Assembly: GCA_049510745.1 (NCBI GenBank)
Contig: JBEKYR010000022.1
Span: forward strand, 19,591-83,590
Length of the DNA: 64,000 bases
DNA from: Verrucomicrobiota bacterium
GTDB lineage: Bacteria; Verrucomicrobiota; Verrucomicrobiia; Limisphaerales; Palsa-1400
Direction: 5' to 3'
Shown one piece after another: positions 21,601-63,181 of this stretch; positions within the stretch are counted from its first letter, which is position 1; each line of letters starts with the position of its first letter. The position numbers were made by a program, and so were the translations under genes. The notes beneath the pieces were generated by a model. The model did not search any database. It had not been told where the DNA came from and saw nothing but the letters and a program-made list of their open reading frames with translations.

Positions 21601-21621
21601 AAGTTTCTTTGCAGGCAGATG

Positions 21622-23190: not shown

Positions 23191-23262
23191 AGGGGGGGTT
23201 GTTGGAGGGGCCCCGGCCGGTTGCCGATTTCCTTCACCGCATATTGGCGCTTTAGCGTCATG

Positions 23263-23323: not shown

Positions 23324-23330
23324 ATTTTCA

Positions 23331-23655: not shown

Positions 23656-23671
23656 CAGGCGCTTTCGCACG

Positions 23672-23688
23672 TCGGCACGGCTAATGCT
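23672..23688 (+). promoter_or_regulatory. Candidate sigma-54 (-24/-12) promoter
   Basis: TCGGCACGGCTAATGCT: GG-N10-GC spacing and GGCACG core, just upstream of a small ORF with a GAGGAG SD. Confidence 0.55.
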
Positions 23689-23723
23689 CTCTCAATGGCA
23701 TGATATCAGTGAGGAGTCATCAA

Positions 23724-23894
23724 ATGGGGGCATCCGGGGTGATCCAGGCCGTGGGACTGGTGGCGCTGATTGGGTTCATCTACCGGCATTTCGGACCGCA
23801 GGCACAGGGGCCGGTGACGCCATCGGTCGTCGCCGTTATGGCCACCGGGGTGATTTTGTTGCTTTGGCCGATGAGCTTGAAGACAAGGCACTAA
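23724..23894 (+). CDS. Small (56 aa) two-helix membrane protein
   Basis: GAGGAG SD at 23711-23716; two hydrophobic segments and a basic tail (KTRH). Confidence 0.55.
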   Translation: MGASGVIQAVGLVALIGFIYRHFGPQAQGPVTPSVVAVMATGVILLLWPMSLKTRH

Positions 23895-23922
23895 CGCATG
23901 GGCGGGAATGTCCGGCGTGGGC

Positions 23923-37400: not shown

Positions 37401-37556
37401 GCCGGCCGGAAAAATAGCGCGCCGCCGCCCCGCGCGTCAATGCGGCGGAAAGCAGCCCCTTGTGTTTGGCCGGTTCCTTTGCTACGTTGGAGGAGTCGAT
37501 TGACAAGACCGGAACCGTCACGACTGAAACTCAAATTCGAAAACAAGAGACACATT

Positions 37557-38183
37557 ATGGCATACGAACTACCTGCTCTGCCCTACCCGAAGGAGGCGCT
37601 CGAACCTTACATCGACGCGCTGACCATGGAAATTCACCACGGCAAACATCACGGCGCTTACGTGGCCAACCTCAACAAGGCCCTGGCCGGCAAAGCCGAC
37701 CTGGAAAAGAAAACGCTCGAGCAACTCATCGGGCATCTCGATGCGGTCCCGGCGGACATCCGCGGGCCGGTGCGCAATAACGGCGGCGGCCACGCCAATC
37801 ACTCGCTGTTTTGGAAAATTCTGGGGCCGAAAGCCGGCGGCGCGCCCACCGGCCCGCTGGCCGAGGCGATTGCATCGGCTTTCGGCAGTTTCGACGCTTT
37901 CAAGGAGAAGATCGAGGCGGCGGGTCTGGGCCGTTTTGGCAGCGGCTGGGCCTGGCTGCTGGTCCACAACGGGAAGCTGGAAATCGCCTCGACGCCCAAC
38001 CAGGACACGCCGTTGATGGGCAAAGCCGTCGCCGGCTGCGAAGGCCGTCCCATCTTGGGGGTCGATGTCTGGGAGCACGCCTATTATTTGAAGTATCAGA
38101 ACCGGCGGGCCGATTACCTCAAGGCCTTCTGGAACGTGGTCAACTGGACCGAGGTCGCGAAGAATTACGCGGCGGCCAAATAG
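37557..38183 (+). CDS. sodA: Superoxide dismutase, Mn-type
   Basis: [35 protein letters not shown]. Confidence 0.95.
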
Positions 38184-47625: not shown

Positions 47626-48303
47626 ATGCCCATAAGAATAAACCTGTTGGCCGAGGCGCAAGCGGCGGAGGAGTTGCGGCGAAAGGACCCGGTCAAGCGC
47701 GCCATTTGGATTGCCGGCTTCTTCGTGTGTGTCGTCCTGCTCTGGATGCTGAAGCTCCAACTGGACATCTATTTCACCCAAAATGATTTCACCAGCATTG
47801 ACAAGCGAGCCACGGAGATCAACGCCAAGTACGCGGCGGTGACCAACAACCTGATCAGAACCGCGCAGGTGGACCAGAAGCTCGCCGCGCTGGACCGGCT
47901 GACCACCAACCGCTTCCTCTGGGCGCCGCTCCTGAACGCCTTCCAGAAGAGCATGGTGGAGGGCATCCAGATTACCCGTTTGAGCGGCGACCAGAGATAC
48001 ACCAAGGAAGATCCGCGCACCATCGGCAGCGGTTCGAGCAGAATGACCATCCCCGGCGGCGTGGTGGAAAAGATCAGCCTGCACATCGAGGCCAGGGATA
48101 TGAATCCCAATGAACAGGGCTACACCAAATACAAGGAGAACCTTGGCAGTTGCGACTATTTTCTCAAACGCCTCAAACGCCGCGACGGCTTTGTTTTGGA
48201 CGGCACTTTAAGCCCGCCGTCCGCCGACCCATCGGACCCGTCCAGGCAATTTGTCACGTTTGCGCTGGTTTCGCATTTCCCGGAGGTGCGCCGCGGTGAA
48301 TAA
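47626..48303 (+). CDS. PilN-like inner-membrane protein
   Basis: RINLL motif, single TM, coiled coil, W..LL ferredoxin-like periplasmic region. Confidence 0.75.
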   Translation: MPIRINLLAEAQAAEELRRKDPVKRAIWIAGFFVCVVLLWMLKLQLDIYFTQNDFTSIDKRATEINAKYAAVTNNLIRTAQVDQKLAALDRLTTNRFLWAPLLNAFQKSMVEGIQITRLSGDQRYTKEDPRTIGSGSSRMTIPGGVVEKISLHIEARDMNPNEQGYTKYKENLGSCDYFLKRLKRRDGFVLDGTLSPPSADPSDPSRQFVTFALVSHFPEVRRGE

Positions 48304-48880
48304 GCTGAGCAAAACCCAGCGGGATCGGATTCTGGGCATCCTGATCGGGACTCCTGTCCTGATGGCGTTGCTCTGGTATTTCGCCGTGCAGGCGGAACAG
48401 GCCCAGCTCCATGGCCTGCAAAAGAAGGTGGCGGACAAGAAAGATCAACTGATGAAGGCCGAGACGGTGATGCGCAAGGGAGAGGAAATCTCCGACAAAC
48501 TGCAGGCCCACAACGACCTGCTGGCGAAGCGCGAGGCCACCCTGGCCCCTGATCGGGACGCCTACGCCTGGATCATCAGCACGATCAATCCGTTTATCCT
48601 CTCGCGCAAAGGGGTCAGCATTTACGCTTACAGCCAGCCGGAGATCAGCGACCTGGGCATCCTTCCGGCTTTCCCCTACCGCTGGGCCACCTTTCATCTT
48701 AAAGGAACCGGCTATTACCATGAGTTTGGCGCCTTTTTTGCGGACCTTGAAAACACCTTTCCTTACTTTCGCGTCCAGAACGTGGACGTGGCCGCCAATA
48801 CCGGCCCCGGCGTCGAGCCGGAAAAGCTCAACTTCAACTTTGATTTGGTGACGCCGGTGGTCGCGAGCGACACAAAATGA
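48296..48880 (+). CDS. PilO-like inner-membrane protein
   Basis: TM + coiled coil + GYYHEFGAFFADLEN (PilO G.Y..F..F motif). Confidence 0.8.
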   Translation: MNKLSKTQRDRILGILIGTPVLMALLWYFAVQAEQAQLHGLQKKVADKKDQLMKAETVMRKGEEISDKLQAHNDLLAKREATLAPDRDAYAWIISTINPFILSRKGVSIYAYSQPEISDLGILPAFPYRWATFHLKGTGYYHEFGAFFADLENTFPYFRVQNVDVAANTGPGVEPEKLNFNFDLVTPVVASDTK

Positions 48881-49386
48881 GAATTGCCTCCACCATATCG
48901 CAGTGCGCGCGCGTTCTGGCCGCGATGGGGCTTGGGCTTTGCTGTCTGGTTGGATGCAAAAAGCCGCCCGCGCCGGCCGCCGTGGCCAAGGCCGCCGTCA
49001 GCGCCGCCAAAACCAACGCGGTTGTTGCCGCCACAAACGAGACGGCCTCGGAGTATGTTTCGGTTTTTGAGGACCTGCTTCCGCCCAAGGGCAGGGACCC
49101 GTTTTTCCCCAATTCCCATCGCCGGGAGCCGGCGCCGCCGCCCAACTATCACGCGGCCAAGGCGCCGGTCGCCGCGCTGCTTGTGCTCAAGGGCATTGTC
49201 GGCTCCGCCAACCGCCGTCTGGCCGTGATCAACAACGCCACGCTGGAGACGGGCGAAGAATCCTCCGTGCGCGTGCCCGACGGACACGTGCGGGTGAGGT
49301 GCCTGGAAATCGGGGAGGACTATGTTTTGATCAAAGTGGAAGGGGAAGGTCAACCGAAACGATTGGAATTGGGGAAAAAGGAATAA
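48877..49386 (+). CDS. PilP-like lipoprotein
   Basis: LVGC lipobox, GRDPFFP, LKGIVG..RLAVINN. Confidence 0.75.
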   Translation: MRIASTISQCARVLAAMGLGLCCLVGCKKPPAPAAVAKAAVSAAKTNAVVAATNETASEYVSVFEDLLPPKGRDPFFPNSHRREPAPPPNYHAAKAPVAALLVLKGIVGSANRRLAVINNATLETGEESSVRVPDGHVRVRCLEIGEDYVLIKVEGEGQPKRLELGKKE

Positions 49387-49444
49387 CGGACGCGCGTCTG
49401 AACCGACGCGGCTCATCAAACTATTGAAATTGCTTGAAGCTATT

Positions 49445-51142
49445 ATGAAAACGGAAAGCGTCTTCGCGGTCATTTTGGCGGTCCTGGCCCCTTGTCTGGC
49501 CGCCCTCGGCCAAACTGCTCCCCAGCCGGCGCCGGCGCCCGTGCCACCCTTGGCCGGGCCGGAAGCCGCCGCGACCAACACCGTTCCCGCGGGCGACGAT
49601 GTGGTCGATGTGGTGGCCTTTGACGGCGTGCCGTTGCCGGACGCGATACGGACGCTGGCGCTGCAGGCCGGGTTGAATATCCAATTTGATCCCAAGCTCA
49701 TCAACGCGGTTGGACCCGATGGCCACCCCGTGACACCGCCCACTGTCACCGAGAAATGGCACAAGCTCACGGCCATGCAGGCCTTGCAGGCTTTGCTGGA
49801 CAACTGGGGCTGGCAAATGGTGTGGGACGCGCGCACCAAAATCGGACGCATCACGGCCAAGGACGCCAGCGCGCTGGAGCCGCTGGTGGTGACGGTGGTG
49901 GCCCTCAGATACGCCAATCCCACCAACATGATCGCCCTGGTCCTGCCCACCCTTTCCACCCGCAGCACGATCAGCGCCGACTCGCGCACACGCCAACTCA
50001 TCGTGCGCACCACGGAGAAGGAACTGGCCGGAGCCGAGGCGCTCATCGCCAAATTGGACTCCGCCACCCGGCAGGTCCTGGTGGAAGCGAAAATTTTTGA
50101 AACGAGCAAGGACATCAATTCGGCCAAGGGAGTGGATTGGAGCGGAACGCTGGCCGCCCAACACGTCAGCTTTGGCAATGGCCTGACCTCGGGGACGACC
50201 GTTGCGGGCACCCAGGTCAACAGCGGAACGGCTGGCGCTTCCACCACTCTGTCGCCGGGCGGATCGACGATCACGGGTACGGGCAGTTCGGCTGCGAGCA
50301 TACTTTCCAGCAATGTCTCCACTTTTACCACCTCCATTCTAGGTTCACCGGCGGCAGGGGGCGGCTTTACCGCCAATACTTCCCGCGGCATCAACCCGTC
50401 CATCGCCTTTCTCAACGCCGATGGCCTCCAGGCCGTGCTTTCGTTCCTGAACACCGACACCGACACCAAGACGATCGCGTCCCCGAGGGGAGTCGCCCTG
50501 GATGGATCGCCGACGGAGTTGATGGTCATCAACAACGTCCCTATTTTCCAGCAGACGCAAAGCGCGCCCGCGGCGGGAGCGGCCCAGGGTCTGGCCACGG
50601 TCGAACCCGTTTACGATAAGACGGTGGGCGGCACGATCCTGAACGAAGTCGGTGTCAAACTGACGGTGACGCCGAAAATCGCCGGTCCAACCAACGTCCT
50701 GTTGGAAGTCCGGCCGGAGATTTCGCAGCAACAGGGGCAAGTCAGCCAGACGTTGAACGGGCAAAACAATACCGCGCCCATTTTCAGCCGCACCAGGATA
50801 GTGACCCAGGCGTCGGTTCCCAGCGGCTACACGCTGGTCCTGGGCGGGTTGGACCAGGACGTGGCGACGAAAAACTTTACCAAAGTGCCCTTCCTGGGCG
50901 ATCTGCCGGGGGTGGGCTACGTTTTCCGCAGCGACAACAAAACCCATTCGAAGCAAACCATCCTGATCTTCGTCACGCCCACCATCATCCGGGACCAGGA
51001 TTTTCAGCCGTCCGAAAGCAAGTTTCTCAAACGGAAACAGGAGTCGCCATCCGGAATCGGCGAGCCGCCTTGGGACACGGGAGCGCCCTATGATTGGACC
51101 AAGCCCGAAAACAACGGCATCGCTCCGGAGTATAAGCCTTAA
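49445..51142 (+). CDS. Secretin (PilQ/GspD family)
   Basis: DSRTRQLIV N3 domain, QVLVEAKIFE, VGVKLTVTPKI, GYTLVLGGL, KVPFLGDLPGVGYVF, IFVTPTII. Confidence 0.93.
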   Translation: MKTESVFAVILAVLAPCLAALGQTAPQPAPAPVPPLAGPEAAATNTVPAGDDVVDVVAFDGVPLPDAIRTLALQAGLNIQFDPKLINAVGPDGHPVTPPTVTEKWHKLTAMQALQALLDNWGWQMVWDARTKIGRITAKDASALEPLVVTVVALRYANPTNMIALVLPTLSTRSTISADSRTRQLIVRTTEKELAGAEALIAKLDSATRQVLVEAKIFETSKDINSAKGVDWSGTLAAQHVSFGNGLTSGTTVAGTQVNSGTAGASTTLSPGGSTITGTGSSAASILSSNVSTFTTSILGSPAAGGGFTANTSRGINPSIAFLNADGLQAVLSFLNTDTDTKTIASPRGVALDGSPTELMVINNVPIFQQTQSAPAAGAAQGLATVEPVYDKTVGGTILNEVGVKLTVTPKIAGPTNVLLEVRPEISQQQGQVSQTLNGQNNTAPIFSRTRIVTQASVPSGYTLVLGGLDQDVATKNFTKVPFLGDLPGVGYVFRSDNKTHSKQTILIFVTPTIIRDQDFQPSESKFLKRKQESPSGIGEPPWDTGAPYDWTKPENNGIAPEYKP

Positions 51143-51156
51143 ACAGGATTGTTTTT

Positions 51157-54100
51157 ATGACACTCAATCGCACAGAGCAGGCGTGCGGGAAAAGGTGGCG
51201 GCCCGGTTTGGGGGCGGCGCTGGCGGCTCTCGGCTGGCTGGCCTTTGCCTGGTGCGCCAGCGCCCAGGTGTCGGTCCAAACCGTCGGCGGCGGGGTGCGG
51301 ACCGAATGCGGCTCCACCGCGGGATTTGTCGCCGGCAACACCTATGAAAAAGCCCAGTTCAACGCGCCTTACGCCGCCGCGCTGGACGCGCAGGGCAATT
51401 TATGGCTGGCGGACAGGAACAATTCCGACATCGAGCAGATCAGCCAGGCCGGCAACCGCAGCAGCAGTGTGACGGCCCACTACGGATTCGGATCGCCGGC
51501 CAACTATCACGCGCTCACCAATATCAACGGGGTCGCGCTCGATCCGAGCGGCAACCTGTATGTTTTGCTGCCCCAAAACGGCGCCGTTCTGAAGTTTCAG
51601 GTGGCCGGGCAATTCCTCGACGAGTTGGCCTATGCGCAGTTTCCCAGTGTCTCGGCGCCGGCCACCGCGATGTTGGTCGATTTCAACTCCAACGTCTTTG
51701 TCGCCTTCACCAATGGGAGCATCATCCGTTTTACGCTGACCAATGGCGTGACCAGCGCGCCGTATCAGTATATTGTCAACGGTTTCAACTGGCAGCCGGC
51801 CGGGATGACCTTATGCGCCAACGGCTACCTTGCCGTCAGCGATACGCTCAATGATGCGATCTACGAGGTGCCCGCGATCCCCAACTCGACCCCGACTCTG
51901 CTCACCGGGGGCGGGGCGGGGTGGGTGGACGGCCCCCCTGCTTACGCCAAGTTTCAGAACCCGCACGGCCTGGCGGCATCGCAAGACGGGCGGATTGTCG
52001 TTTGCGACACCGGGAATAACCGCTTGCGGATCATCGACGCCTCGACCAATACGTCCACTCTTTACGGAACCAGCACCAATGTTTGGCCGGCGACCTGCTG
52101 TAGTTGCTATCCGGATGCCCTTTACGCCGGGTGGGTGGACGGCCCCGCGGGCATCACCTCGACCAGCGCAGCGGGCCGCGCGCCCGTCAGCGTGCTCATC
52201 GCCTCTTCCGGCGCCTTGTTTGTCACCGAACTGTATTACAACTTGATCCGAACCGTCTCCGGCAGCGGGCTGACGCCGGTCAATACCGCGGCCACCTTGC
52301 CGGTGGCCGTCACGACGGCGGCTTCCGCCATCACGGCCACAAACGCGACGTTGAACGGGACGGTCAATCCCGGCGGGGACCCGGCGGGCTATTATTTTGA
52401 ATGGGGCACCAACGCCAGTTACGGGAACTATTCGCCGACGAATGTCCTGTCCGCCAACTTGACAGGCGCCAATGCGGTCGCCTGGGCCATGACCAATGTG
52501 GCGCTCAGTCCGGGGACAACCTATCATTTCCAATTGGTGGCGACCAACAGTCTCGGCGTCACCAACGGCGGGGACCAATCCTTCGTCACACTCGCCCTTT
52601 CGGGGACGGTCGCCACGCTGCCGGCCACCAATGTCACGGCGACGGGCGCGACGTTGCTGGCGTCGGTCAATCCCGGCGGGGATGTGACCTCGGTTGATTT
52701 CCAGTGGGGCACGAGCACCAACTACAGCAACGTCACGGCCGCGACAAACCTGACGAACAACCTGAACAGCACCGTGACGGTGGCGATCCCGGTGACCAAT
52801 TTACAGGGGGGAACAACTTATTACTACCAGGTGGTGGCTTACAATAGCGCGGGAACCAGCTACGGCAGCCAGTTGATCTTCACGACGCTGACACTTCCGC
52901 CGCCCACGATTACCTTTGGCCCCGGCGCCGGCTACTTCCCCGAATGCGTGACGATTTCCGTGACCAGCAGCGTGCCGGCGGTTTATTACACCACCGATGG
53001 CAGCGCGCCGACGACCAGCAGCGCGGAAGCGACGATCATAGCGACCAATTCAACCAACTACATCGAGGCGTTCCAATGGTGCAATTCACAGCATGACCTG
53101 AGCAGTCTGCGCCTGCTGGCCTTCAATGGCAGCAACTCCAGCACCGTCGTCCAGGGCAGCGCCCCCACGACCAACCTCATCGGTTTCCCGCAGACGACCT
53201 ACGCCGGCTCCGGCTCGACGGCCTACATCCCCATCGTGGTGGACATGCAGAGCAACGGCGTGCTGCAGTCGCTGCAATTCCGCGCCGAAATCGCCGCGAA
53301 CGGGGCCGCGCCGGCGATTTCCAACGTGACGTTGCAGCCGATCACGTCGGGTGATTTCGTGGCATTGGTCGGGCCGGCGCCCGGCAACGCGCCGGTCACC
53401 TACCAAACTTTCGCTTACACCAATCCGGTCAACAATGCCTTTGGCCTGGTCATTGCCACCGAGCCCGGTTCCGGATTGAGCATCCAGGGGTTTGCCGTGG
53501 CGGTTTTGCTCCGGGTGCCGATTCCCAAGAGCGCGGCTTTCGGCAACAGTTACAGTCTCAGCGTGCTCTATCCGTCCGGCACCTCCGACGGCATCGCCAA
53601 CGCGGTGGGAATGACGACCAATCCGGCGGCGGCGTTGATGATTATGGACAAGGCTTACATGTCGGGCGACTGTTCACCCGCCAACGGCTACAACGCCGGC
53701 GAGTTTGGAAACGGGTCGCTGGACGACAGCGATGCCAACACTATTCTCTATGCCTTGGTGGGCATCCGCAAGCCTTACGCCGACAGCGATGCGTTCAACG
53801 CCATGGATGTGTTCCCGGAAACGAACAACCTGGCAAAGTTCGGCCAGGGGCATCTGGTCTATTTGGATTGGCAAATTACGCTCGATCGCGCCTTGGGCTT
53901 GAATACAAATAATTGGGTTCGTTTTTGGGCCAACGGCGCTCTGGCGCACTCGGATGATTTCGTCTGGACGCCGGGCGGCACGCCGGTGGTTCTGTCGGAC
54001 GAATCTTCGGGCAGAGCGCCCCAAAAGCTGGCTCTGAGCGGCACGCCGCCGGGTTTGGTCTGGTTCTGTCAGGCCTCGATCGGCGCGGGCAACGCGGTTG

Positions 54101-54882
54101 AGTTGATTCCGGGCAACACCTGTTCCCTTCCTGTTTATGCCAGGGTTCTGCCGGGCTACAGTCTCTGGGGGATGGATTTCCGCGCCGTCGTCACGCCCAA
54201 TGGCGCCGCGCCGGCGGTCGGCCAGGTCCAGTTTAATGCCGCTCCCGGAATTCCGCCGCCCTCGGTGCTTCCCGGCCTGTCTTCCAACGATATTGTCTGC
54301 GCCTGGTCCCTGGGTTCTTTCGAGCCGCCGTTGGAGAACAGCAATTACATCGGCTCCATCAGCTTCCAGGTCCCGCCGGCTGCCGCGCGGGGGCAATCCT
54401 ATTCCTTGCATTTCATTGGCGCGGGCGGCGCGCCCGATGCCACGACGTCTTACCAACTGGAAAGCTTCCCCGCCACCGCCTGCGTTGAGTCCGCCGCCCT
54501 GCCCACTCCCTCTCTCACGTCGGACGACTGGAAGCTCGCCTTTTTTGGGAGCCTTACCAATTCCCTGGCGGCTGATAATGTCGATGCCGACGGCGATGGC
54601 ATGCCCAACTGGCAGGAATATCTGGCCGGCACCAATCCGACCGACGCCACTTCCTGCCTGCGATTCAGCAGCGCCGCTTTTAACGCCGCCGGCCTGCCGG
54701 GCGTTGCGCTCAATTGGCTGACCGCGCCGGACAAGACTTATGTCGTGGAATCACAGCCGGCTTTGGGAGGCACGAACTGGACTGCCGTCAACACCAACAG
54801 CGGCGATGGCAATTACTACCAATTGCTCATCACCAATTACAGCGGCAGCGCCCGCTTCTACCAAATCCGCCTGCAGCCATGA
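51157..54882 (+). CDS. Large secreted protein A: NHL repeats, 2 FN3/Ig-like repeats, chitobiase-C-like module, cohesin-like, dockerin-like, cohesin-like, DxDGDG motif, C-terminal domain
   Basis: FNAPYAAALD, FQNPHGLA, ATLNGTVNP..YHFQLVATN x2, YYTTDGSAP, DADGDGMPNWQEYLAGTNP, ends RFYQIRLQP. Confidence 0.85.
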   Translation: MTLNRTEQACGKRWRPGLGAALAALGWLAFAWCASAQVSVQTVGGGVRTECGSTAGFVAGNTYEKAQFNAPYAAALDAQGNLWLADRNNSDIEQISQAGNRSSSVTAHYGFGSPANYHALTNINGVALDPSGNLYVLLPQNGAVLKFQVAGQFLDELAYAQFPSVSAPATAMLVDFNSNVFVAFTNGSIIRFTLTNGVTSAPYQYIVNGFNWQPAGMTLCANGYLAVSDTLNDAIYEVPAIPNSTPTLLTGGGAGWVDGPPAYAKFQNPHGLAASQDGRIVVCDTGNNRLRIIDASTNTSTLYGTSTNVWPATCCSCYPDALYAGWVDGPAGITSTSAAGRAPVSVLIASSGALFVTELYYNLIRTVSGSGLTPVNTAATLPVAVTTAASAITATNATLNGTVNPGGDPAGYYFEWGTNASYGNYSPTNVLSANLTGANAVAWAMTNVALSPGTTYHFQLVATNSLGVTNGGDQSFVTLALSGTVATLPATNVTATGATLLASVNPGGDVTSVDFQWGTSTNYSNVTAATNLTNNLNSTVTVAIPVTNLQGGTTYYYQVVAYNSAGTSYGSQLIFTTLTLPPPTITFGPGAGYFPECVTISVTSSVPAVYYTTDGSAPTTSSAEATIIATNSTNYIEAFQWCNSQHDLSSLRLLAFNGSNSSTVVQGSAPTTNLIGFPQTTYAGSGSTAYIPIVVDMQSNGVLQSLQFRAEIAANGAAPAISNVTLQPITSGDFVALVGPAPGNAPVTYQTFAYTNPVNNAFGLVIATEPGSGLSIQGFAVAVLLRVPIPKSAAFGNSYSLSVLYPSGTSDGIANAVGMTTNPAAALMIMDKAYMSGDCSPANGYNAGEFGNGSLDDSDANTILYALVGIRKPYADSDAFNAMDVFPETNNLAKFGQGHLVYLDWQITLDRALGLNTNNWVRFWANGALAHSDDFVWTPGGTPVVLSDESSGRAPQKLALSGTPPGLVWFCQASIGAGNAVELIPGNTCSLPVYARVLPGYSLWGMDFRAVVTPNGAAPAVGQVQFNAAPGIPPPSVLPGLSSNDIVCAWSLGSFEPPLENSNYIGSISFQVPPAAARGQSYSLHFIGAGGAPDATTSYQLESFPATACVESAALPTPSLTSDDWKLAFFGSLTNSLAADNVDADGDGMPNWQEYLAGTNPTDATSCLRFSSAAFNAAGLPGVALNWLTAPDKTYVVESQPALGGTNWTAVNTNSGDGNYYQLLITNYSGSARFYQIRLQP

Positions 54883-57800
54883 GTAACATACTTCCATTTC
54901 CAATTGAGAAACCGAAGCCCAAGGCGATTTGGGGCCTTCTGGCTGCGGCCCTGTTTGCGACTCCGCTTCACGCTCAGTTCGTCAGCACCCTCATCTCCAC
55001 CAACCTGCTGCAGCCGGACTCTGTTGCCGCCGACGCCGCCGGAAACCTGTATGTGACGGATTCCGCCGACAATCGCATCGTCGAGTACTCGCCCGGTTCC
55101 GGAACAACCAGCATCCTGGCCGGCGGATTCTCGCAGCCATTGGGCATCGTGGCGGCCCGCGGCGGGCTGGTGGTGGTCGATCAAGACAACCAACTGATTC
55201 GGCTGGTGAGTTTCACCGGAACGGTCACCAACCTGGCCGGAACGGAGGGATCCGTCGGCGCCAGCAACGGACCGGGCGCCGGCGCCACTTTCAGTTATCC
55301 AGTGGGCATCGCGGCCGACGGCGCGGGCAACCTCTACGTGGCGGACTGGGGAAACAACCTGATCCGCGAAATTTATACGAACAATTATGTCACGAACGTC
55401 GCGACCGGCGGTTATCAATTCAACGGGCCGACGGCGGTGGCGGTGGACAACAACAGCAATCTCTGGGTCGCCGATGCCGGCAACGAGGTGATTTGCATGG
55501 TCAGCAACGGCGTTGCCACGGTGATCGCGGGAGCGACGGGGCAACCCGGAACCAACGACGCCACGGTGGCGACCAACGCGCACTTCAACGCCCCGGGCGG
55601 TTTGCTTTGGGACACAGTCAATAATAGGCTTTTGATCAGCGATTCGGGCAACGGCGCCATCCGCAGCCTCTTTTTGTCGAACTCCCTTTACGCTGTCCAG
55701 ACCATCGCCGGCACTCCCGGCCAGCCTGGAAACGCGGAGGGACTGCCTGGCGCCGCCAAATTCGGTTATCCGGTCGGGATTTGCGTTGACAGCGTGGATT
55801 CCGGCTTTTACATCGCGGATTTCGGGAACAACTCCGTGCGGGTGTTGCAGCCCAGCGCGCCGCAGCCGCCCGTTTCCACGCCCCAGATCGGCTATGTCAG
55901 TTATCCGGCCACTGCGAATCCCGCCTATACGTCGGTCTTCATTCCATCGACCGGCGCGACTTTCAACAATCTGACAAACATCGTGATCGACGCCGAGACA
56001 GGCACGCAGACGTACGTCAGCTACGGCCCCACCGGCTCGGCCATCCCCCTGCCGGGGCCGGGCAGCACGCAGCCGCTGATTTATCCCGGCGACGGCTCAA
56101 CTGCGAGCCAAGTTGCCGGTTCGGCCCTGGTGTTTGGCGCCGGCACCAACGACATTACAATTTATGCCATTGGGGAAGCGAACGGCCGGCGGCCGAGCGC
56201 GGTGGCCAGCGCCCGTTTCCAGTTTATCGCTGCCAACCCGATCATTACCGGCGATAACGCCGCCGCCATTCTCCTGACCGATAGCACCATCGGCTCGACC
56301 CTCTACTACACGACGGACGGCTCGTCGCCGACCAACAATGGGAGCAGTCCGGGCGTGGCCAGCGGAACAACCCTGTCCCTTCTCATCACCACCAACGTCA
56401 CCCTCGAGGTGCGCGCGTTTGCGGCCGGTTTTGCCGCCAGCCAAGCGGTCAGCACCCAACTGACCATCTCGAACTTTGTCGGCAACCAGGTTGGTTTTCC
56501 CCAGAGCCATGCGGCGGGCATCGGAGCGACGGCGATACTTCCCATCGCCCTGGCCATGGCGCAAAGCAACGCGGTTCTGGAGTCCATTCAATTCCGGGTT
56601 GAAGTCGCGCCCCTCGGGGGGAACACCAACATGATCTCCTCCTTGAGCCTGCTGCCGATGACGAGCGGGGATTTTGTTCCCTGGCTCGGTCCTGCGCCGG
56701 GAAATGCGCCGGTGAATTATGTGACCCTTCCTTATACGTCCGGCAAGGTCCAGGGCCTGGCCATTGCCACGCAGACCAATTCCGGGTTTTCCATCCAAGG
56801 CGCCGGCGTGGTGGCGCTGCTGGAGATTCCCATCCCCAAGACCGATTCCTTTAACGACCAGTACAGCCTGTCCATTATCAACCCGTCCGGCACGTCGGAC
56901 GGCAACCAGGCAAATGTGCCGCTGGTGGCCATGTCAAACCAAACGCTGACGATCTCCAATCCCCGCTATCTGGCCGGGGACAGTTCGCCCGCCACGGGAT
57001 ATGATGCCGGGGAATTCGGCGACCAAATCCTGAACAATAGCGACGTCAACAACGCTCTTTATGCTTCGGCCCTCATCCGCGTTCCCCCCGTGTTTAGCGA
57101 CGCCCACAACGCCATGGATGTCTATCCGCCGCCCGCGGGCGACGGACAAATCACCTTTTTGGATTGGGTGACAATTCTCAGACGCTCCCTCGGTCTGGAT
57201 CCAAATTATTGCATCCGCTATCGAACCAACAATGGCGTCATCTTTCAGGAAGTGACGAACTGGACCAACTCCAATACGCCCATTCCGCTCACCGCGCCAC
57301 AGTCCGGGTCCTCCGGCACGCCTGGCATTTCAAAAGAATCTTTGAGCAATACGCCGCCGGGGTTGGTCTGGCTCCGGCAGGCCGTCATTGGCGCCGAGAC
57401 TGAAACCAACGTGGCGCCCGGCTCGGTTTGTTCCATTCCGGTCTATGTGAAGGTCTCGCCCGGCTACAGTCTGGCCGGCCTGCAATTCCGCGCCATTCTT
57501 TCCGCCGAGGGCGGCGCTCCGGCTCCCGGCGCCATCGCGTTCTCGCCCGCGGGCGGCGTCCCCACCCCGATCCAATTGCCGGGGCTGGCCGCCAGTGACA
57601 TCGTGTGCGCGTGGGCGCCTGGAGCCTTCTCTCAGTCCCTGCAAAACAGGAATTATCTCGGCGTCATTACGTTCCGGGTTCCGTCCGCCGCCCAAGCGGG
57701 GCAGTCTTATGCGGTGCATTTTGTCGGAGTGGATGGCGCGCCGGATACGCAGACTTCCTACCAGTTGGAAAGCTTTCCGGGATGGATCTGGGTGAACTCG

Positions 57801-58190
57801 GCGGCGCTGCAACCGCCGCAGATCAGCTCCGACGAGTGGCGGGTCTTCTTCTTCGGCAGCCTGACCAACAGCCTGGCCGCGGACAATGTCGATGCCGACG
57901 GGGACGGCATGCCAAACTGGATGGAGTATCTGGCCGGAACCGACCCGACCGACCCGCTTTCCAGGTTCCAATTCACCACGGCGGGCATCAACACGAACGG
58001 CATCGGCGGAGTCGGCTTGGGCTGGCTGACCGCTCCGGGCAAGACCTACGTTTTGGAATCCATCCCGGTCCTGGGCGGGACCCATTGGACGGCCATCAAT
58101 ACCAATGTGGGTGATGGCAACAACTATCAATTCGTTCAAACCAACTACAGCGGCGCCTCCCGCTTCTATCAACTTCGCCTGCAGCCATGA
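54879..58190 (+). CDS. Large secreted protein B, paralog: NHL repeats, chitobiase-C-like, cohesin-dockerin-cohesin-like, C-terminal domain
   Basis: Start MSNILP at 54879 (ATGA overlap); FSYPVGIAAD, FNGPTAVAVD, GDGQITFLDWVTILRRSLG; ends RFYQLRLQP. Confidence 0.85.
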   Translation: MSNILPFPIEKPKPKAIWGLLAAALFATPLHAQFVSTLISTNLLQPDSVAADAAGNLYVTDSADNRIVEYSPGSGTTSILAGGFSQPLGIVAARGGLVVVDQDNQLIRLVSFTGTVTNLAGTEGSVGASNGPGAGATFSYPVGIAADGAGNLYVADWGNNLIREIYTNNYVTNVATGGYQFNGPTAVAVDNNSNLWVADAGNEVICMVSNGVATVIAGATGQPGTNDATVATNAHFNAPGGLLWDTVNNRLLISDSGNGAIRSLFLSNSLYAVQTIAGTPGQPGNAEGLPGAAKFGYPVGICVDSVDSGFYIADFGNNSVRVLQPSAPQPPVSTPQIGYVSYPATANPAYTSVFIPSTGATFNNLTNIVIDAETGTQTYVSYGPTGSAIPLPGPGSTQPLIYPGDGSTASQVAGSALVFGAGTNDITIYAIGEANGRRPSAVASARFQFIAANPIITGDNAAAILLTDSTIGSTLYYTTDGSSPTNNGSSPGVASGTTLSLLITTNVTLEVRAFAAGFAASQAVSTQLTISNFVGNQVGFPQSHAAGIGATAILPIALAMAQSNAVLESIQFRVEVAPLGGNTNMISSLSLLPMTSGDFVPWLGPAPGNAPVNYVTLPYTSGKVQGLAIATQTNSGFSIQGAGVVALLEIPIPKTDSFNDQYSLSIINPSGTSDGNQANVPLVAMSNQTLTISNPRYLAGDSSPATGYDAGEFGDQILNNSDVNNALYASALIRVPPVFSDAHNAMDVYPPPAGDGQITFLDWVTILRRSLGLDPNYCIRYRTNNGVIFQEVTNWTNSNTPIPLTAPQSGSSGTPGISKESLSNTPPGLVWLRQAVIGAETETNVAPGSVCSIPVYVKVSPGYSLAGLQFRAILSAEGGAPAPGAIAFSPAGGVPTPIQLPGLAASDIVCAWAPGAFSQSLQNRNYLGVITFRVPSAAQAGQSYAVHFVGVDGAPDTQTSYQLESFPGWIWVNSAALQPPQISSDEWRVFFFGSLTNSLAADNVDADGDGMPNWMEYLAGTDPTDPLSRFQFTTAGINTNGIGGVGLGWLTAPGKTYVLESIPVLGGTHWTAINTNVGDGNNYQFVQTNYSGASRFYQLRLQP
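55872..56489 (+). repeat. ~600-bp near-identical segment shared with 59249-59866 (genes B and C)
   Basis: Both begin GTTTCCACGCCCCAGATCGGCTATGTCAGTTATCCGGCCACTGCGA and stay aligned, with long identical runs, to the GNQ codons. Confidence 0.92.
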
Positions 58191-61100
58191 GCCAGCATCT
58201 TTATCCTTCATTCGGACTGTCCGCGGGGCATCGGCGCCTCCTGGGCATTGTCGCCCTGACACTGCTCGCCGCCGGCGCCCAGGCCCAGTTCGTCGCCACC
58301 GTCGTTTCCTCCAATTTGTTCGAGCCGAACAGCGTGGCCGTTGACATCAACGGCAACGCCTACCTCACCGACGCCTCCGACAACCGGATTGTCAAGTTTA
58401 TTCCCAGCAGCGGAGTGGCCTCGACCCTCGCCGGCGTGTCCGGCCAATTCAGCTACGGAACAAACGACGGCTTGGGGTCGGCCGCGCGGTTTAACCAGCC
58501 CCTGGGAATCGTCGCCGTCTCGAGCGGCCTGGTCGTCGTGGATCAGGGCAACCAGGAGCTTCGCTTCGTCAGTTTTGCGGGAGCGGTGTCCCACTTTGCC
58601 GGCGTGGCCGGAGTGGCCGGGACGAATGACGGACCCGGGGCCACGGCCAACTTTAATTATCCCTCGGGCATTGCCAGTGATGGCCAGGGCAATTTTTACG
58701 TCGCCGACCAGGGCAACAATCTCATCCGCAAAATCGATTCCAGCACCAATGTCACCACGGTTTCCGTCACCAACGGTTATCAATTCAACGAGCCGACAGG
58801 CGTGGCGGTGGACAACAACAGCAACATTTGGGTGGCCGATACCGGCAACAACGTCATCTGCATGATCAGCAACCAGGCGGTTGCCGTCATCGCTGGAACC
58901 AGCGGGGTGAGCGGCTTCGACGATTCCACCACGGCGTCCAGCGCCCTGTTCTCGGGGCCGACGGGCCTCCTTTGGGTCCCGGTTGGCCCCAGTCTCCTGA
59001 TCGCCGACACCGGCAACAACGTGCTCCGCAGTCTCTTTCTCACCAATGCCACCGGATCAGTCGGTTACGCCGTGCAAACAGTGGTCGGCGTTGCCGGGCA
59101 GGCGCACTTGGTGGATGGGGCGCCTGGGACCGCCGAATTCGTTGCGCCCGTCGGGTTGAGTGTGGACCCCTATGACTCGGGCTTTTATGTGGTGGATCGC
59201 GGCGCCAATGCCTTGCGCACGTATCAGCCGAATGCGCCTCAACCGCAGGTTTCCACGCCCCAGATCGGCTATGTCAGTTATCCGGCCACTGCGATTCCCG
59301 CCTATTCTTCGGTCTTCATTCCATCGACCGGCGCGACCTTCAACAATCTCACGAACATTGTGGTCAACGCCGAGACAGGCACGCAGACGTACGTCAGCTA
59401 CGGACAAACCGGCTCGGCCATCCCCCTGCCGGGACCGGGCAGCACGCAGCCGCTGATCTATCCCGGCGACGGCTCAACCGCGAGCCAAGTTGCCGGTTCG
59501 GCCCTGGTGTTTGGCGCCGGCACCAACGACATTACGATCTATGCCGTTGGGGAAGCGAACGGCCGGCGGGCCAGCGCGGTGGCCAGCGCCCGTTTCCAGT
59601 TTATCACCGCCAACCCGGTCATTACCGGCGATAACGCCGCCGGCATTCTCCTGACCGACAGCACGGTCGGATCGAGCCTGTATTACACAACCGGCGCTTC
59701 GGCCCCGACCAACGATGGGAGCAGCCCGGGCGTGGCCAGCGGAACAAGCTTGTCCCTTGACATCACCAGCAACGTCACCCTCCAAGTGCGCGCGTTTGCG
59801 GCCGGCATGGCCGCCAGCCAGGTGGTCAGCAACCAATTCTCGGTCTCCAACGTGGTGGGGAACCAGTTGACCTGGGGATTCTCCAGCGGCCCTGTTTCCA
59901 CCCACTTCATCACCGCTCTCAATTTGCTCTTTGACGCTCCCGTCACGTTTACCGAACTGGCCGGCAGTCTTGAAATTTACACATTGCAGCTTGACTTGAC
60001 CGTGACCAACAACGGCGCGACACCGCCCCCGGCCTTAACCCCGGCAAACTTTGCATCCGACCTGCTGCAACCGATTCCAAACGTGCCCAACGCGTATAAG
60101 CCAATTCCCCCGGGCATGTTCATCAATGGCGTTACCAACGCCGGCGTTATCGACACCCAGCCTAACACCTTGGAGATCTTCTGGCTTGTGACCCCTGCGG
60201 TGTCCAATTTATACACCAGCGCGGAACTTCTTCAATTCTCTGGCGCCGCCCAAACGCTCTTCGACCTCGATACCGTGGGAGTGGCAGTTGTCGGAGATTT
60301 GTCATTTGTTGTCCCGGCCGGCGCCACGCCCGGCGCTCCTTATACCCTTCAAATCCGCTATCCCTCGGCCAGTTCCTATTACGCCCCGCAGATTGGCGGG
60401 CCGCCGATCAATGTTTTTGTCCAGGCTCCCACCAACGGCCCGCTCACCAACACGGGCCTGAACTCCGTCAAATTGGTTACCGTTCTCTCCAATAATTCGC
60501 CGGCCAGCGCCCATCTCGTCGGCGACGTCTTCCCATACACCTGGTATAATATCGGGGATTTCGGCGATGGCTTTTTGCTCAATGATGATGTTATTGAAAC
60601 CATGGAATACGCCGGAACCCGCGGCTTTGCCAACAACCCTTTCTATGACGCCATGGATTCCTCCGACGGCACCGTCAACAACTATTACACCGCCACCGAC
60701 TCGACGATTGACACCATCACCACGGGCGATGGCGTCATCAACGTCGATGATGTCTATGTCACCCTTCGCCGCTCCCTGGACCCGAGCCTTCTCAATTACC
60801 AAAGGATTTGGTCCGGCTCGGCCTGGGTGCCGGCGGTTTACACCAACTCGGTGCAATTGAGCGCCAAATCTTCCTCCCCGTCCCGGCCGCCGGTGAAGAT
60901 GGCTCTGAACGGCCCGCGTTATATCACCGTCGCGGCCGATCAAGTTCAATCCGGCGGAAACTTGACGGCGCAGGTGCCCATCCGTGTATTGGCGGCCGAC
61001 ACCCTGCCCGTGCGAGTATTCATGCTCAACGTCGATATCGAGCCGCTGGACGGCTCGCCTGCCGTTGCCGGCGCCGTCAGTTTTTCGCCGGCGGCCGGTC

Positions 61101-61723
61101 TGGGTGCGCCTTGGGCGATCACATCAACGGGCCTCAATAATTACAGTGCCGCCTGGCTCGACTCGACCGTCACCGGCGTCAGTGGCACCAACGTGATCGG
61201 CACCCTGTCCATCCCGCTGCCTTCCAACGCCACCGCCAACTCGGCGTATCGGGTCCACTTCAATCACTTCTCCGCCTCGCCCAACGGCCTGGCCCTCTTT
61301 CACGCCACCGTGCAGGACGGCTTGATCACCGTCGGCGACCGCTCCGGCTCCAGTTGGCGCGACGGCATCCCCGACACCTGGCGGCTGCTCTACTTCGGGA
61401 CCATCTCCAACGCGCTTTCCGCCGCCAATGCCGACCCTGACGGCGACGGCGCCTCCAACTGGCAGGAGTACGTCGCCGGGACCAATCCGCTGGACGCGAC
61501 GTCGGTTTTTCAATTCCTGCCCGCCTCGGCCCCCGCCGGAGGCAGCTTCACCCTGCAATGGCCGTCTGTTGTCAACAAACATTACACCGTGCAGAGCGCC
61601 CCCTCGCTGTTCGGCGGGTGGACGACGCTGGCGACCAACCTGCCCGGCAACGGCCAGACATTGCAATGGACGGACAGCAGCGCCGCCGCCGGCGCCCGCT
61701 ACTATCGCGCCCTGGTGCAGTAA
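58187..61723 (+). CDS. Large secreted protein C, paralog: NHL repeats, chitobiase-C-like, cohesin-dockerin-cohesin-like, C-terminal domain
   Basis: FNQPLGIVA, FNYPSGIASD, GDGVINVDDVYVTLRRSL, DPDGDGASNWQEYVAGTNP; ends RYYRALVQ. Confidence 0.85.
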   Translation: MSQHLYPSFGLSAGHRRLLGIVALTLLAAGAQAQFVATVVSSNLFEPNSVAVDINGNAYLTDASDNRIVKFIPSSGVASTLAGVSGQFSYGTNDGLGSAARFNQPLGIVAVSSGLVVVDQGNQELRFVSFAGAVSHFAGVAGVAGTNDGPGATANFNYPSGIASDGQGNFYVADQGNNLIRKIDSSTNVTTVSVTNGYQFNEPTGVAVDNNSNIWVADTGNNVICMISNQAVAVIAGTSGVSGFDDSTTASSALFSGPTGLLWVPVGPSLLIADTGNNVLRSLFLTNATGSVGYAVQTVVGVAGQAHLVDGAPGTAEFVAPVGLSVDPYDSGFYVVDRGANALRTYQPNAPQPQVSTPQIGYVSYPATAIPAYSSVFIPSTGATFNNLTNIVVNAETGTQTYVSYGQTGSAIPLPGPGSTQPLIYPGDGSTASQVAGSALVFGAGTNDITIYAVGEANGRRASAVASARFQFITANPVITGDNAAGILLTDSTVGSSLYYTTGASAPTNDGSSPGVASGTSLSLDITSNVTLQVRAFAAGMAASQVVSNQFSVSNVVGNQLTWGFSSGPVSTHFITALNLLFDAPVTFTELAGSLEIYTLQLDLTVTNNGATPPPALTPANFASDLLQPIPNVPNAYKPIPPGMFINGVTNAGVIDTQPNTLEIFWLVTPAVSNLYTSAELLQFSGAAQTLFDLDTVGVAVVGDLSFVVPAGATPGAPYTLQIRYPSASSYYAPQIGGPPINVFVQAPTNGPLTNTGLNSVKLVTVLSNNSPASAHLVGDVFPYTWYNIGDFGDGFLLNDDVIETMEYAGTRGFANNPFYDAMDSSDGTVNNYYTATDSTIDTITTGDGVINVDDVYVTLRRSLDPSLLNYQRIWSGSAWVPAVYTNSVQLSAKSSSPSRPPVKMALNGPRYITVAADQVQSGGNLTAQVPIRVLAADTLPVRVFMLNVDIEPLDGSPAVAGAVSFSPAAGLGAPWAITSTGLNNYSAAWLDSTVTGVSGTNVIGTLSIPLPSNATANSAYRVHFNHFSASPNGLALFHATVQDGLITVGDRSGSSWRDGIPDTWRLLYFGTISNALSAANADPDGDGASNWQEYVAGTNPLDATSVFQFLPASAPAGGSFTLQWPSVVNKHYTVQSAPSLFGGWTTLATNLPGNGQTLQWTDSSAAAGARYYRALVQ

Positions 61724-61726: not shown

Positions 61727-63181
61727 CTATTGGATGGCCAATTCCTGCTTGATCTGGAATTTTTCCACGCGCTTGCGCAAGGTCGCGCGCGTGATGCCCA
61801 GCAATTGGGCCGCCCGCACCTGGTTGCCCTTGGTTTCCAAAAGCGCCTGGATGATCAACTCCCGCTCGACGGCCGGCAGGATTTTGAGCTTGGGATTTTC
61901 CCGCGCCCACTGGAAAAGCGTGCGGGTGAGGGATGCCAAATCCGCCGGGCGCTCCTGCTCGGGCGCGCGGGACGGCGCCGGCCCGCCGGCCTTCTCCGCC
62001 GCCGGCGCGGGTCCGGTGGAAATCAGCGGCGGCAGATCGCCGGGCAGGATGACATCGCCCTTGGCCATGACCAAGGCCCGCTGCATCACGTTCTCCAATT
62101 CGCGCACGTTTCCCGGCCAGTGGAAGCGCTCCAGCAACTCCACCGCCGGAGCGGCGATCGATTTGGGAGCGCGCCCCTGCTTCTGCCCGAATTTTTTCAG
62201 GAAATAATTGATCAACAGCGGAATGTCCGTCCGCCGGTCGCGCAAGGGCGGAATCTGAATCCGCACGACGTTGAGCCTGTAAAACAAATCCTCGCGGAAT
62301 TCCCGCGCCGCCACCGCTTGCTCCAGCGGCTTGTGCGTCGCGGCGATGACCCGCACATCGACCTGGATGGGCTGGTTGCCGCCCACCCGCTCGAACGAGC
62401 CGGATTGCAGCACCCGCAAAATTTTCGCCTGCGTCGAAAGCGTCATGTCGCCGATCTCATCCAGAAAAATCGTTCCGCCGTCGCATTGCTCGAATTTCCC
62501 GATCCGTTGCGCGGTCGCGCCGGTGAACGCTCCCTTTTCGTGTCCGAACAATTCGCTCTCCAGCAGATTCTCCGGGATGGCCGCGCAATTGATGGCCAGA
62601 AACGGCCGGCCGTTGCGCTTGCTGTGGTGATAAATGGCGCGCGCGACCAGTTCCTTGCCGGTCCCGCTCTCGCCGGTGATGAGGGCGGTGGCGTTGCTGC
62701 CCGCCAGTTGGCCGATGATCTTGAACACCTCCTGCATCGGCTCGCTCCGCCCGATGATGCCCACGTCGTAATCCTCCGATTCGAGCAGCGGCTCGTAGGA
62801 AACCACCTGCTTCATGTCCCGGGCGGCTTTGAGGGCGTTGAGGACGATTTGTTTCAGGCGCGGCACGTCGAAGGGCTTGAGCAAATAATCGTAGGCCCCC
62901 AGCTTCATCGCCTCGATGGCCGTCTGGGTCGTGCCGTAGGCCGTCATCATGATGACCATTTGTTTGGCGTCGAGCTGCCGGAGTCGGCGCAGGGTTTCCA
63001 GGCCGTTCATGCCGCCCATGCGCACGTCCATGATGACCAGGTCCGGTTTCAGGCGCGGAATGATTTTCAAGCCCTCCTCCCCGCTGGCCGCCGTGGTCAG
63101 CTCGATGTCCGGCTGGTCAAAGATGCGGCGAAACGAATACTGCACGTCCACTTCGTCGTCAATTAAGAGCAACTTATCCAT
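61727..63181 (-). CDS. Sigma-54-dependent response regulator (NtrC/AtoC family)
   Basis: Receiver, GESGTGKE, ESELFGHEKGAFTGA, WPGNVRELEN, Fis-type HTH. Confidence 0.96.
   Translation of the reverse strand: MDKLLLIDDEVDVQYSFRRIFDQPDIELTTAASGEEGLKIIPRLKPDLVIMDVRMGGMNGLETLRRLRQLDAKQMVIMMTAYGTTQTAIEAMKLGAYDYLLKPFDVPRLKQIVLNALKAARDMKQVVSYEPLLESEDYDVGIIGRSEPMQEVFKIIGQLAGSNATALITGESGTGKELVARAIYHHSKRNGRPFLAINCAAIPENLLESELFGHEKGAFTGATAQRIGKFEQCDGGTIFLDEIGDMTLSTQAKILRVLQSGSFERVGGNQPIQVDVRVIAATHKPLEQAVAAREFREDLFYRLNVVRIQIPPLRDRRTDIPLLINYFLKKFGQKQGRAPKSIAAPAVELLERFHWPGNVRELENVMQRALVMAKGDVILPGDLPPLISTGPAPAAEKAGGPAPSRAPEQERPADLASLTRTLFQWARENPKLKILPAVERELIIQALLETKGNQVRAAQLLGITRATLRKRVEKFQIKQELAIQ

Follow-up and report, generated by a model that had tools for sequence, protein, structure and literature searches.

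Predicted cohesin and dockerin folds in NHL-propeller proteins encoded behind a secretin cassette in Verrucomicrobiota

Gene content of the locus

We analysed a 64,000-nucleotide stretch of DNA from a peat Verrucomicrobiota bacterium of the order Limisphaerales (GenBank assembly GCA_049510745.1, contig JBEKYR010000022.1, positions 19,591 to 83,590 of the forward strand), which we call the window and in which all positions are counted from the first letter. Open reading frames (ORFs) and their translations reveal seven tightly packed plus-strand genes across 47626-61723: a cassette of PilN-, PilO- and PilP-like proteins and a secretin, followed by three very large paralogous proteins, named A, B and C. 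Each of A, B and C combines an NHL propeller with a module in which two cohesin-like domains (Coh1 and Coh2) are predicted to flank a dockerin-like domain (Doc). Our preferred reading, to which we assign a probability of roughly 45%, is that A, B and C carry no enzyme, are exported by Sec and work at the cell surface together with the secretin machine encoded upstream, either as its cargo or attached to it, and that their Coh1-Doc-Coh2 base is a self-locking clamp. The genes are listed below, with annotations from translations, Pfam, domain hidden Markov models (HMMs) and AlphaFold2 models.

47626..48303, plus strand: PilN-like protein (ORF and translation), with a short cytoplasmic N-terminus MPIRINLL, one transmembrane helix and a periplasmic domain
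48251..48880, plus strand: PilO/GspM-like protein, true start probably about 48299; orthologs positionally conserved in related loci
48877..49386, plus strand: PilP-like lipoprotein, lipobox LVGC read from the translation
49424..51142, plus strand: secretin of 572 residues with one Secretin_N domain (Pfam), probable start ATG at 49445
51157..54882, plus strand: protein A (AB-type), 1241 residues; signal peptide, NHL propeller, two FN3 domains, CHB_HEX_C, Coh1-Doc-Coh2, C-terminal tag (Pfam and domain HMMs)
54879..58190, plus strand: protein B (AB-type), 1103 residues; signal peptide, NHL propeller, CHB_HEX_C, Coh1-Doc-Coh2, C-terminal tag (Pfam, and AlphaFold2 model of residues 521-1103)
58187..61723, plus strand: protein C (C-type), 1178 residues, same domain plan as A and B
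61727..63181, minus strand: convergent sigma-54-dependent response regulator (Pfam Sigma54_activat, E 9e-74), with 3 bp between its stop and that of C

The secretin stop lies 14 bp before the start of A, and A/B as well as B/C overlap by the four letters ATGA, so the gene order and spacing given in a preliminary description of this DNA are correct. Judging from this spacing, the cassette and the three large genes would be co-transcribed. No sigma-54 promoter pattern was found between DUF6580 and pilN (the window as a whole holds 66 matches, against 91 expected), and sigma-70 promoter-like and terminator-like sites occurred at chance level in our scans.

The names given to the three small proteins reflect gene order, size, topology and one weak GspM match, while the secretin domain is recognised by Pfam. 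Neither the PilN-like protein nor the PilP-like lipoprotein matches any Pfam or NCBIfam family, and the PilO/GspM-like protein reaches E 1.6e-5 against the NCBIfam model T2SS_GspM_XpsM, under its cut-off. Orthologs of the PilN-like protein are the first gene of the cassette in related loci, and its INLL motif is a putative PilM-binding motif. The secretin matches Pfam Secretin at E 3.2e-35 and Secretin_N at E 2.8e-9; its NCBIfam matches to GspD (1e-46) and PilQ (5e-45) are both far under the cut-offs.

In A, B and C, Pfam detects NHL repeats (E 5e-14 to 3e-23) and a CHB_HEX_C stalk domain, as well as the two FN3 domains of A, but no enzyme domain; within the last approximately 580 residues a weak TSP3 repeat is its sole match. 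Cleavage-like sites of signal peptides can be read by eye in all three (ASA/QV, LHA/QF and AQA/QF). The propellers, the signal peptides and the non-enzymatic character of the chains had all been proposed earlier, and Pfam bears out the first and the last. The motifs quoted at that time can also be located: LQFRA, YSLS and LLRVPIP in A, SIPVYVKV, YAVHF and GDGQITFLDW in B, and GDGVINVDD in C. The module of C is 26-28% identical to those of A and B.

Cohesin-like and dockerin-like folds

Cohesins and dockerins are the textbook connectors of Gram-positive cellulosomes. Non-cellulosomal cohesins and dockerins are widespread. The positions of the domains that we assign to these folds are as follows; the fold evidence comes from AlphaFold2 models of B, and the domains of C were assigned by domain HMMs.

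53164..53649, plus strand: A, cohesin-like domain 1 (Coh1 HMM, independent E-value 7.7e-49)
53656..53910, plus strand: A, dockerin-like domain (Doc HMM 3.5e-31); second loop GQGH, with Q where D is usual
54043..54501, plus strand: A, cohesin-like domain 2 (Coh2 HMM 5.2e-59)
56478..56960, plus strand: B, cohesin-like domain 1, model residues 14-174 (VIA-align 5nrm_A, 1aoh_A)
56967..57257, plus strand: B, dockerin-like domain of three helices, and a beta hairpin (AlphaFold2; 2ccl_B)
57369..57803, plus strand: B, cohesin-like domain 2, model residues 311-455 (VIA-align 6kgf_A)
59894..60496, plus strand: C, cohesin-like domain 1, with an insertion (Coh1 HMM 6e-10)
60512..60781, plus strand: C, dockerin-like domain (Doc HMM 4.7e-18)
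60926..61342, plus strand: C, cohesin-like domain 2 (Coh2 HMM 5.4e-24)

The C-terminal 583 residues of B (521-1103) were modelled with AlphaFold2 from 83 aligned sequences, with a predicted local distance difference test score (pLDDT) of 91.7, a predicted template modelling score (pTM) of 0.87 and uncertain residues only at model positions 1-11 and 289-302. When this model was searched with Foldseek, cohesins ranked first. With VIA-align, both beta sandwiches superimpose on cohesins over 130-140 residues at Z 12-15 and a root-mean-square deviation (rmsd) of 2.3-2.8. Sandwich 1 (residues 14-173) matches the Acetivibrio cellulolyticus cohesin 5nrm_A at Z 13.6 (rmsd 2.8, 138 of 141 residues) and 1aoh_A at Z 12.7, and sandwich 2 (residues 313-454) matches CaCohA2, 6kgf_A, at Z 14.9 (rmsd 2.4, 132 of 143 residues). 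Rows 1-37 of the VIA-align result are all cohesins, and Gram-positive pilins appear below them at Z of 10 or less. Sequence identity to cohesins is 8-18%. Cohesins are nine-stranded jelly-roll beta sandwiches of about 140-150 residues, and by these matches both sandwiches of the predicted model agree with that fold.

The middle domain of B, modelled alone (105 residues, 89-row alignment), reached pLDDT 93.6. Its predicted fold agrees with the duplicated loop-helix F-hand pair of about 60-70 residues that characterises dockerins. Foldseek found nothing for it at E of 1e-3 or better, though dockerins ranked first. We call the fold because a VIA wide search, which is independent of Foldseek, settled what Foldseek had left non-significant: among 48,161 PDB representatives, 16 chains reached Z of at least 2 and the top 14 were dockerins, the best being 2ccl_B (Z 7.9, rmsd 1.6, 62 of 62 residues, 26% identity). 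The comparison with cohesins and dockerins that had been suggested as a check thus gives cohesins as the best PDB matches of both sandwiches and dockerins as those of the middle domain.

At the sequence level, PF00963 gave no match at E of 10 or below on the three C-terminal halves, phmmer against PDB sequences found no cohesin or dockerin there, and a profile from the full-length alignment retrieved only NHL propellers from the PDB. A profile restricted to the module did produce weak cohesin matches for both sandwiches (E 0.018-0.44; 4uyp at 0.018 and 2zf9 at 0.02). As a predicted fold, the cohesin-dockerin-cohesin series of the preliminary description is therefore supported, whereas the sequence models PF00963 and PF00404 find neither domain. 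The HMMs of Coh1 and Coh2 cross-match weakly (3.8e-7 to 0.1), so the two domains stem from an old internal duplication.

In a canonical dockerin, the 12-residue calcium loop carries D or N at positions 1, 3 and 5, G at 6, a hydrophobic residue at 8 and D or E at 12. In alignments, the two loops of B and of C preserve positions 4-6, 8 and 12, and the dockerin loops retain the pattern G-D-G-x-(I/L)-x-x-x-D, except that A has Q for D in loop 2.

The closest known pairs are the type I cohesin-dockerin pairs of cellulosomes (Clostridium thermocellum 1ohz, 2ccl and 1aoh, C. acetobutylicum 6kgf, A. cellulolyticus 5nrm and 5nrk), whose chains the predicted folds match over nearly their whole length and with which the dockerin-like domains share the G-D-G-x-(I/L)...D half of both loops. 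However, those pairs differ from the present proteins in several respects. Here there is no Pfam match, cohesin identity is as low as given above and loop positions 1 and 3 are noncanonical; the host is a Gram-negative member of the Verrucomicrobiota, A, B and C lack enzyme domains and the genome has no other dockerins; and Coh1, Doc and Coh2 lie on one chain, with no linker between Coh1 and Doc, in genes tied to a secretin operon. The Archaeoglobus fulgidus cohesin 2xdh, a non-cellulosomal cohesin fold, is also among the matches (Z 12.5), but is archaeal and has no secretin context.

Possible partners in the genome

Searched against every six-frame ORF of this 94%-complete genome, our Coh1, Doc and Coh2 HMMs match only A, B and C, and PF00404 and PF00963 have 0 matches in the whole genome. 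Since there is no other cohesin or dockerin of these types, any binding partner should lie in cis or among A, B and C.

These results bear directly on the idea of a cellulosome-like scaffold that recruits dockerin-tagged enzymes. Such a scaffold would fit the cohesin folds and the presence of glycoside hydrolases in the window, for example a GH3 enzyme at 17350-19551, but it needs dockerins on other proteins, and neither Pfam nor our own HMM detects any. This makes a cellulosome-like role very unlikely, and we regard it as close to refuted.

A cohesin and its cognate dockerin have been described on one polypeptide in Amy4 of Ruminococcus bromii, where they are reported to bind each other and self-multimerisation is proposed (PMC4611034). 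As presented there, Amy4 is a GH13 amylase with one cohesin that also binds dockerins of other proteins, whereas the proteins studied here share the one-chain arrangement but have two cohesins, no enzyme and no outside partners detected in the genome. The background statement in the preliminary description that the two modules normally join a scaffoldin to an enzyme is thus incomplete, as scaffoldins and, by the same account, Amy4 carry both on one chain (PMC4611034).

Domain packing and residue co-variation

In the B model, Coh1 runs straight into the dockerin-like domain without a linker, and Coh2 comes after the hairpin and a disordered or flexible linker of about 30 residues. The pTM of 0.87 spans a four-domain stretch with this one disordered linker only, and a value of this size over such a length means that the relative placement of all domains is predicted with confidence.

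We also applied mean-field direct coupling analysis (DCA) to a non-redundant set of 291 module sequences, mostly of the AB-type and equivalent to about 270 effective ones. The 150 strongest couplings include 14 between Coh1 and Doc and 11 between Doc and Coh2. Within the top 40 are the Doc-Coh1 pairs A108-L251, I33-F219, Q51-N200 and Q157-N205, which couple helices 1 and 2 of the dockerin to Coh1, and the Doc-Coh2 pairs F240-G347 and Y229-G347, which involve the start of helix 3 and residue 229. Pair 240-347 exhibits size compensation, with F or Y opposite G and L or I opposite A. Upon permutation of the dockerin columns among the sequences, the maxima fell from 1.84 to 1.14 for Doc-Coh1 and from 1.92 to 0.91 for Doc-Coh2, and Coh1-Coh2 couplings (maximum 1.17) lie within the noise of the permuted run. 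The high pTM and the residue co-variation together suggest a clamp in which the dockerin sits between the two cohesins.

These predictions call into question the branched polymerisation that had been proposed for the locus, a sheath or mesh in which the dockerins of A, B and C bind cohesins of other chains, so that the paralogs are cross-linked, and which is exported through a dedicated secretin. Such a mesh is consistent with the fold count of each chain (two cohesins, one dockerin), with the three co-located paralogs, with the lack of other partners in the genome and with the multimerisation that self-recognising modules would allow in Amy4 (PMC4611034). On the other hand, the module is predicted to be one compact unit, and dockerin co-variation with both cohesins of the same chain fits contacts in cis or within the same protein better than contacts across paralogs. 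Furthermore, if Coh1 is bound in cis as the linker-free fusion implies, each chain retains at most one exchangeable contact, between the second dockerin face and Coh2, which would lead to closed units, dimers or linear chains and not to a branched mesh. The branched lattice is thus disfavoured, and we judge it improbable.

Distribution and synteny

At E<1e-30, a search with the last 583 residues of B retrieves 286 relatives from representatives clustered at 50% identity. The module occurs in at least 49 of 120 other genomes sampled evenly from the order, usually in 2-5 tandem copies; the best 10 candidates per genome were scored, so that this number is a lower bound. It was found in 0 of 200 other genomes of a phylum-wide sample, a weak negative since the best 6 candidates per genome were scored there. 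In both samples, the common C-terminal tag described below can fill the list of scored candidates.

Five public relatives all carry genes for PilN, PilO and the secretin immediately before the module genes and on the same strand, and in four of these five close loci a convergent sigma-54 activator lies downstream. Among 40 loci, one per module-bearing genome of the order, PilN-O-(P)-secretin orthologs are directly upstream on the same strand in 39; the fortieth has only 1.7 kb of upstream sequence and could not be judged. Over both sets, the module genes thus come right after the secretin in all of the 44 related loci that could be tested (39 and 5), with secretin identity in these loci down to 37-38%. 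A PilP-like ortholog between PilO and the secretin was detected by tblastn in 3/5 and 35/40 loci. Synteny of the secretin with the NHL-cohesin genes, which had been named as a check, is thus strict.

Gene order is also fixed, with one or more AB-type genes first and the C-type gene last, and loci with a single gene carry the C-type. AB-type and C-type are two old paralog types. A lone C-type gene is present in 8 of the 40 loci, so three paralogs are not needed, which is a further point against the branched mesh. In the sampled order genomes, no module genes were seen away from the cassette except at contig edges.

Some of these loci have peculiarities of their own. One contig (DATKFW010000131.1, our locus L001) is titled Candidatus Baltobacteraceae, yet it is syntenic with Verrucomicrobiia loci and its proteins are 54-89% identical to those of the window; it is likely mis-binned. 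A 70% complete genome (G253) has two secretin-plus-module loci (contigs C15 and C20), one of its modules contains 3 in-frame TGA codons, and one in-frame TGA each is found in a module of two other genomes (G298:C37 and G215:C181). These may be pseudogenes or assembly errors.

The secretin cassette on its own

Orthologs of the window secretin are present in 88 of the 120 order genomes at E of 1e-40 or below, more than hold the module. We inspected 20 genomes with the secretin but without a detected module. In all 20, PilN, PilO, PilP and secretin genes are intact with no cohesin or dockerin gene behind them (two of the stretches end 1.8 and 3.7 kb past the secretin), and phmmer finds the PilP-like ortholog in all 20. 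In two of these loci (L074 and L077) the sigma-54 activator follows the secretin directly, an arrangement identical to that of the window minus the three NHL genes. As the cassette occurs without the module in 20/20 cases, the dependence is one-way and the secretin is not dedicated to the NHL proteins. That part of the preliminary description, and with it a component of the branched-mesh model, has to be given up. The window secretin is one of four secretin systems in this genome. The cassette appears to be an order-wide machine in its own right, to which the NHL genes are an accessory add-on. In one genome without the cohesin/dockerin genes (L072, G216:C11, 5446-10104), the secretin is directly followed by a different protein of 1553 residues that bears the same C-terminal tag as A, B and C.

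The other three systems of the genome are a canonical type II secretion system (T2SS) on contig C14 (GspE, F, G, H, J, K and D), a second set of GspE, GspM-like and GspD genes on C37, and an Akkermansia-type pair similar to Amuc_1101 and Amuc_1098 on C46 (E 8e-145 and 2e-100). A tblastn search of the genome found no paralog of the PilN/O/P-like proteins. There are two PilM genes, on C46 and C40, and 14 T2SSE-type ATPase matches, all of them off the contig of the window. The C40 PilM is an orphan beside ORFs of 192 and 753 residues, and it might supply the partner that the PilN-like protein of the window lacks.

We considered and rejected three family assignments for proteins of the locus. Against the models of the pilus-like Akkermansia cluster Amuc_1098-1102 (Amuc_1098 and Amuc_1101), the secretin reaches only E 3.5e-22, with 78 bits against a cut-off of 750; weak matches of A and C to Amuc_1099 cover the TSP3-like motif only; and, whereas GspD of a T2SS has N0 and several Secretin_N domains with GspE-M nearby, the secretin has one Secretin_N domain only and no Gsp genes nearby.

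The cassette resembles PilMNOPQ of type IVa pili, with which it appears to share the order N-O-P-secretin, the predicted topologies (single-pass, single-pass, lipoprotein) and the secretin domain. However, no PilM gene heads the operon and no PilM, pilin or ATPase gene was seen nearby (no pilin-aimed search was made), models do not recognise PilN, PilO and PilP, the secretin is far under the PilQ and GspD cut-offs, and giant genes are appended.

A further explanation takes the cassette for the PilNOPQ portion of a type IV pilus. The NHL proteins would then ride on or beside the pilus or secretin, in a role like that of PilY1, instead of being cargo. The propeller head and the calcium-loop-like modules of A, B and C may recall that protein. 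A cassette that is order-wide and autonomous, PilB/PilT-type ATPases and the two PilM genes elsewhere in the genome, and a general C-terminal tag, which implies another route to the surface, would all suit pilus-associated adhesins. Against them, the 47 kb upstream and the remaining 2.3 kb before the contig ends showed no pilin, minor pilin, PilM or ATPase gene (again with no search aimed at pilins), and no family model recognises PilN, PilO or PilP. We consider pilus-associated adhesins possible but doubtful.

The module genes could also be neighbours of the secretin and nothing else, occupying a spot where insertion is tolerated or co-regulation is useful, with export by another system, such as the T2SS on C14 or whatever handles the tag, and no physical link to the secretin. 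Cassettes that stand without NHL genes in all 20 checked genomes, the different tagged protein behind the secretin at L072, the generality of the tag and the full GspD-K T2SS elsewhere in the genome fit this explanation. It is at odds with the same order and strand in every testable locus down to a secretin identity of 37-38%, with genes that are tightly spaced or overlapping, and with module genes being seen away from the cassette only at contig edges. Mere adjacency is therefore quite unlikely in our view.

The C-terminal tag

Proteins A, B and C end in a region of about 125 residues that we refer to as the C-terminal tag.

54508-54879, plus strand: tag of A, about 125 residues
57813..58187, plus strand: tag of B, TSP3-like DxDGDG motif and small beta sandwich ending FYQLRLQP (Pfam TSP3_bac weak)
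61361-61717, plus strand: tag of C, about 125 residues

Its pattern is SDEW..FFG, then DxDGDG..N..EY.AGT.P, then a small sandwich ending FYRxR. The profile matches a glucanase/chitosanase module (2rv9) here at E 2e-4, and in the ESM Atlas the tag was found only in unnamed Verrucomicrobiota clusters. The tag is carried by 41 ORFs of this genome (A, B, C and 38 others, for example G000:C12:60237-60623 and C2:260680-261048), of which 40 end within 5 residues of it, and it is present in 116 of the 120 order genomes. We also asked if the window secretin might export all tagged proteins, and rejected this idea in view of the 116 genomes, in some of which no ortholog of the secretin was found.

The tag is probably a general sorting or anchoring domain of the order, so far without a name. 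As an analogue we would take the C-terminal domain of the type IX secretion system of Bacteroidota, presumably a small C-terminal beta sandwich on many large secreted proteins; the likeness is one of analogy.

Other features in the window

Two features lie outside the locus. At 36621-38183, the longest reading frame that encloses Fe/Mn superoxide dismutase domains has 520 residues, and these domains begin only at residue 314, so either the start was mis-set by the ORF rule or the protein has a long N-terminal extension. At 20902-23190, a terminase large-subunit-like ORF is found in a stretch of lower G+C content (0.545-0.557 over 20001-24000).

Proposed role of proteins A, B and C

Under our preferred reading, Sec would export A, B and C, and the chains would be built from an NHL propeller head, Ig-like stalk domains, the Coh1-Doc-Coh2 base and the C-terminal tag. 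The dockerin of each chain is predicted to be gripped between its own two cohesins, and the unit would then form a rigid closed base or else exchange Coh2 with a neighbouring chain, which would give dimers or head-to-tail chains. The tag may anchor the chain to the cell surface while the propeller faces outward as a distal binding head. The proteins would act with the PilN/O/P-secretin machine, as its cargo or as adhesin-like partners attached at the surface, and not as a cellulosome.

Several observations weigh against this reading. Neither Pfam nor NCBIfam recognises a cohesin or dockerin in A, B or C. In the calcium loops, positions 1 and 3 are G/F or P/A, without acidic or amide residues, and A has Q at position 5 of loop 2; calcium binding is therefore uncertain, and the nearly invariant D181, D221 and D227 might substitute as ligands. 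The DCA coverage filter dropped the C-type sequences and the effective set is small, the permutation control strips relatedness along with pairing, and DCA is blind to the distinction between cis and trans. With regard to the secretin, the intact cassettes that lack any cohesin or dockerin gene show that it does not need the NHL genes, and the tag occurs in genomes in which no ortholog of the window secretin was found, such as G201, G207 and G219. Tagged proteins in these genomes reach their destination without this secretin, which weakens the notion of A, B and C as cargo.

A bolder version of the preferred reading envisages that the proteins assemble by themselves into a crown or a short fibre that docks on a pilus-type secretin. 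The dockerin would be gripped on both faces, Coh2 would be swapped between chains, and AB-type and C-type chains would polymerise head to tail at the pore. We think this unlikely. If true, cellulosome connectors would be reused in a Gram-negative envelope, and the structure would found a new class of adhesins anchored at a secretin.

Among the matches listed by our literature search, whose coverage excluded subscription journals, there was no description of a Verrucomicrobiota system combining a secretin with NHL cohesin/dockerin proteins. In large surface proteins of soil and peat Verrucomicrobiota, cohesin and dockerin folds that are too diverged for Pfam form an enzyme-free unit, at the level of prediction, and in much of an order the genes for this module are tied to a position behind a secretin operon. 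The tag on 41 proteins marks a probable, still unnamed sorting or anchoring signal for the order. If the clamp is real, it would represent a compact and possibly two-faced use of a dockerin and a new module for protein engineering. If the link to the secretin is physical, A, B and C would constitute an undescribed accessory layer of pilus- or secretion-type pores in a little-studied and abundant phylum.

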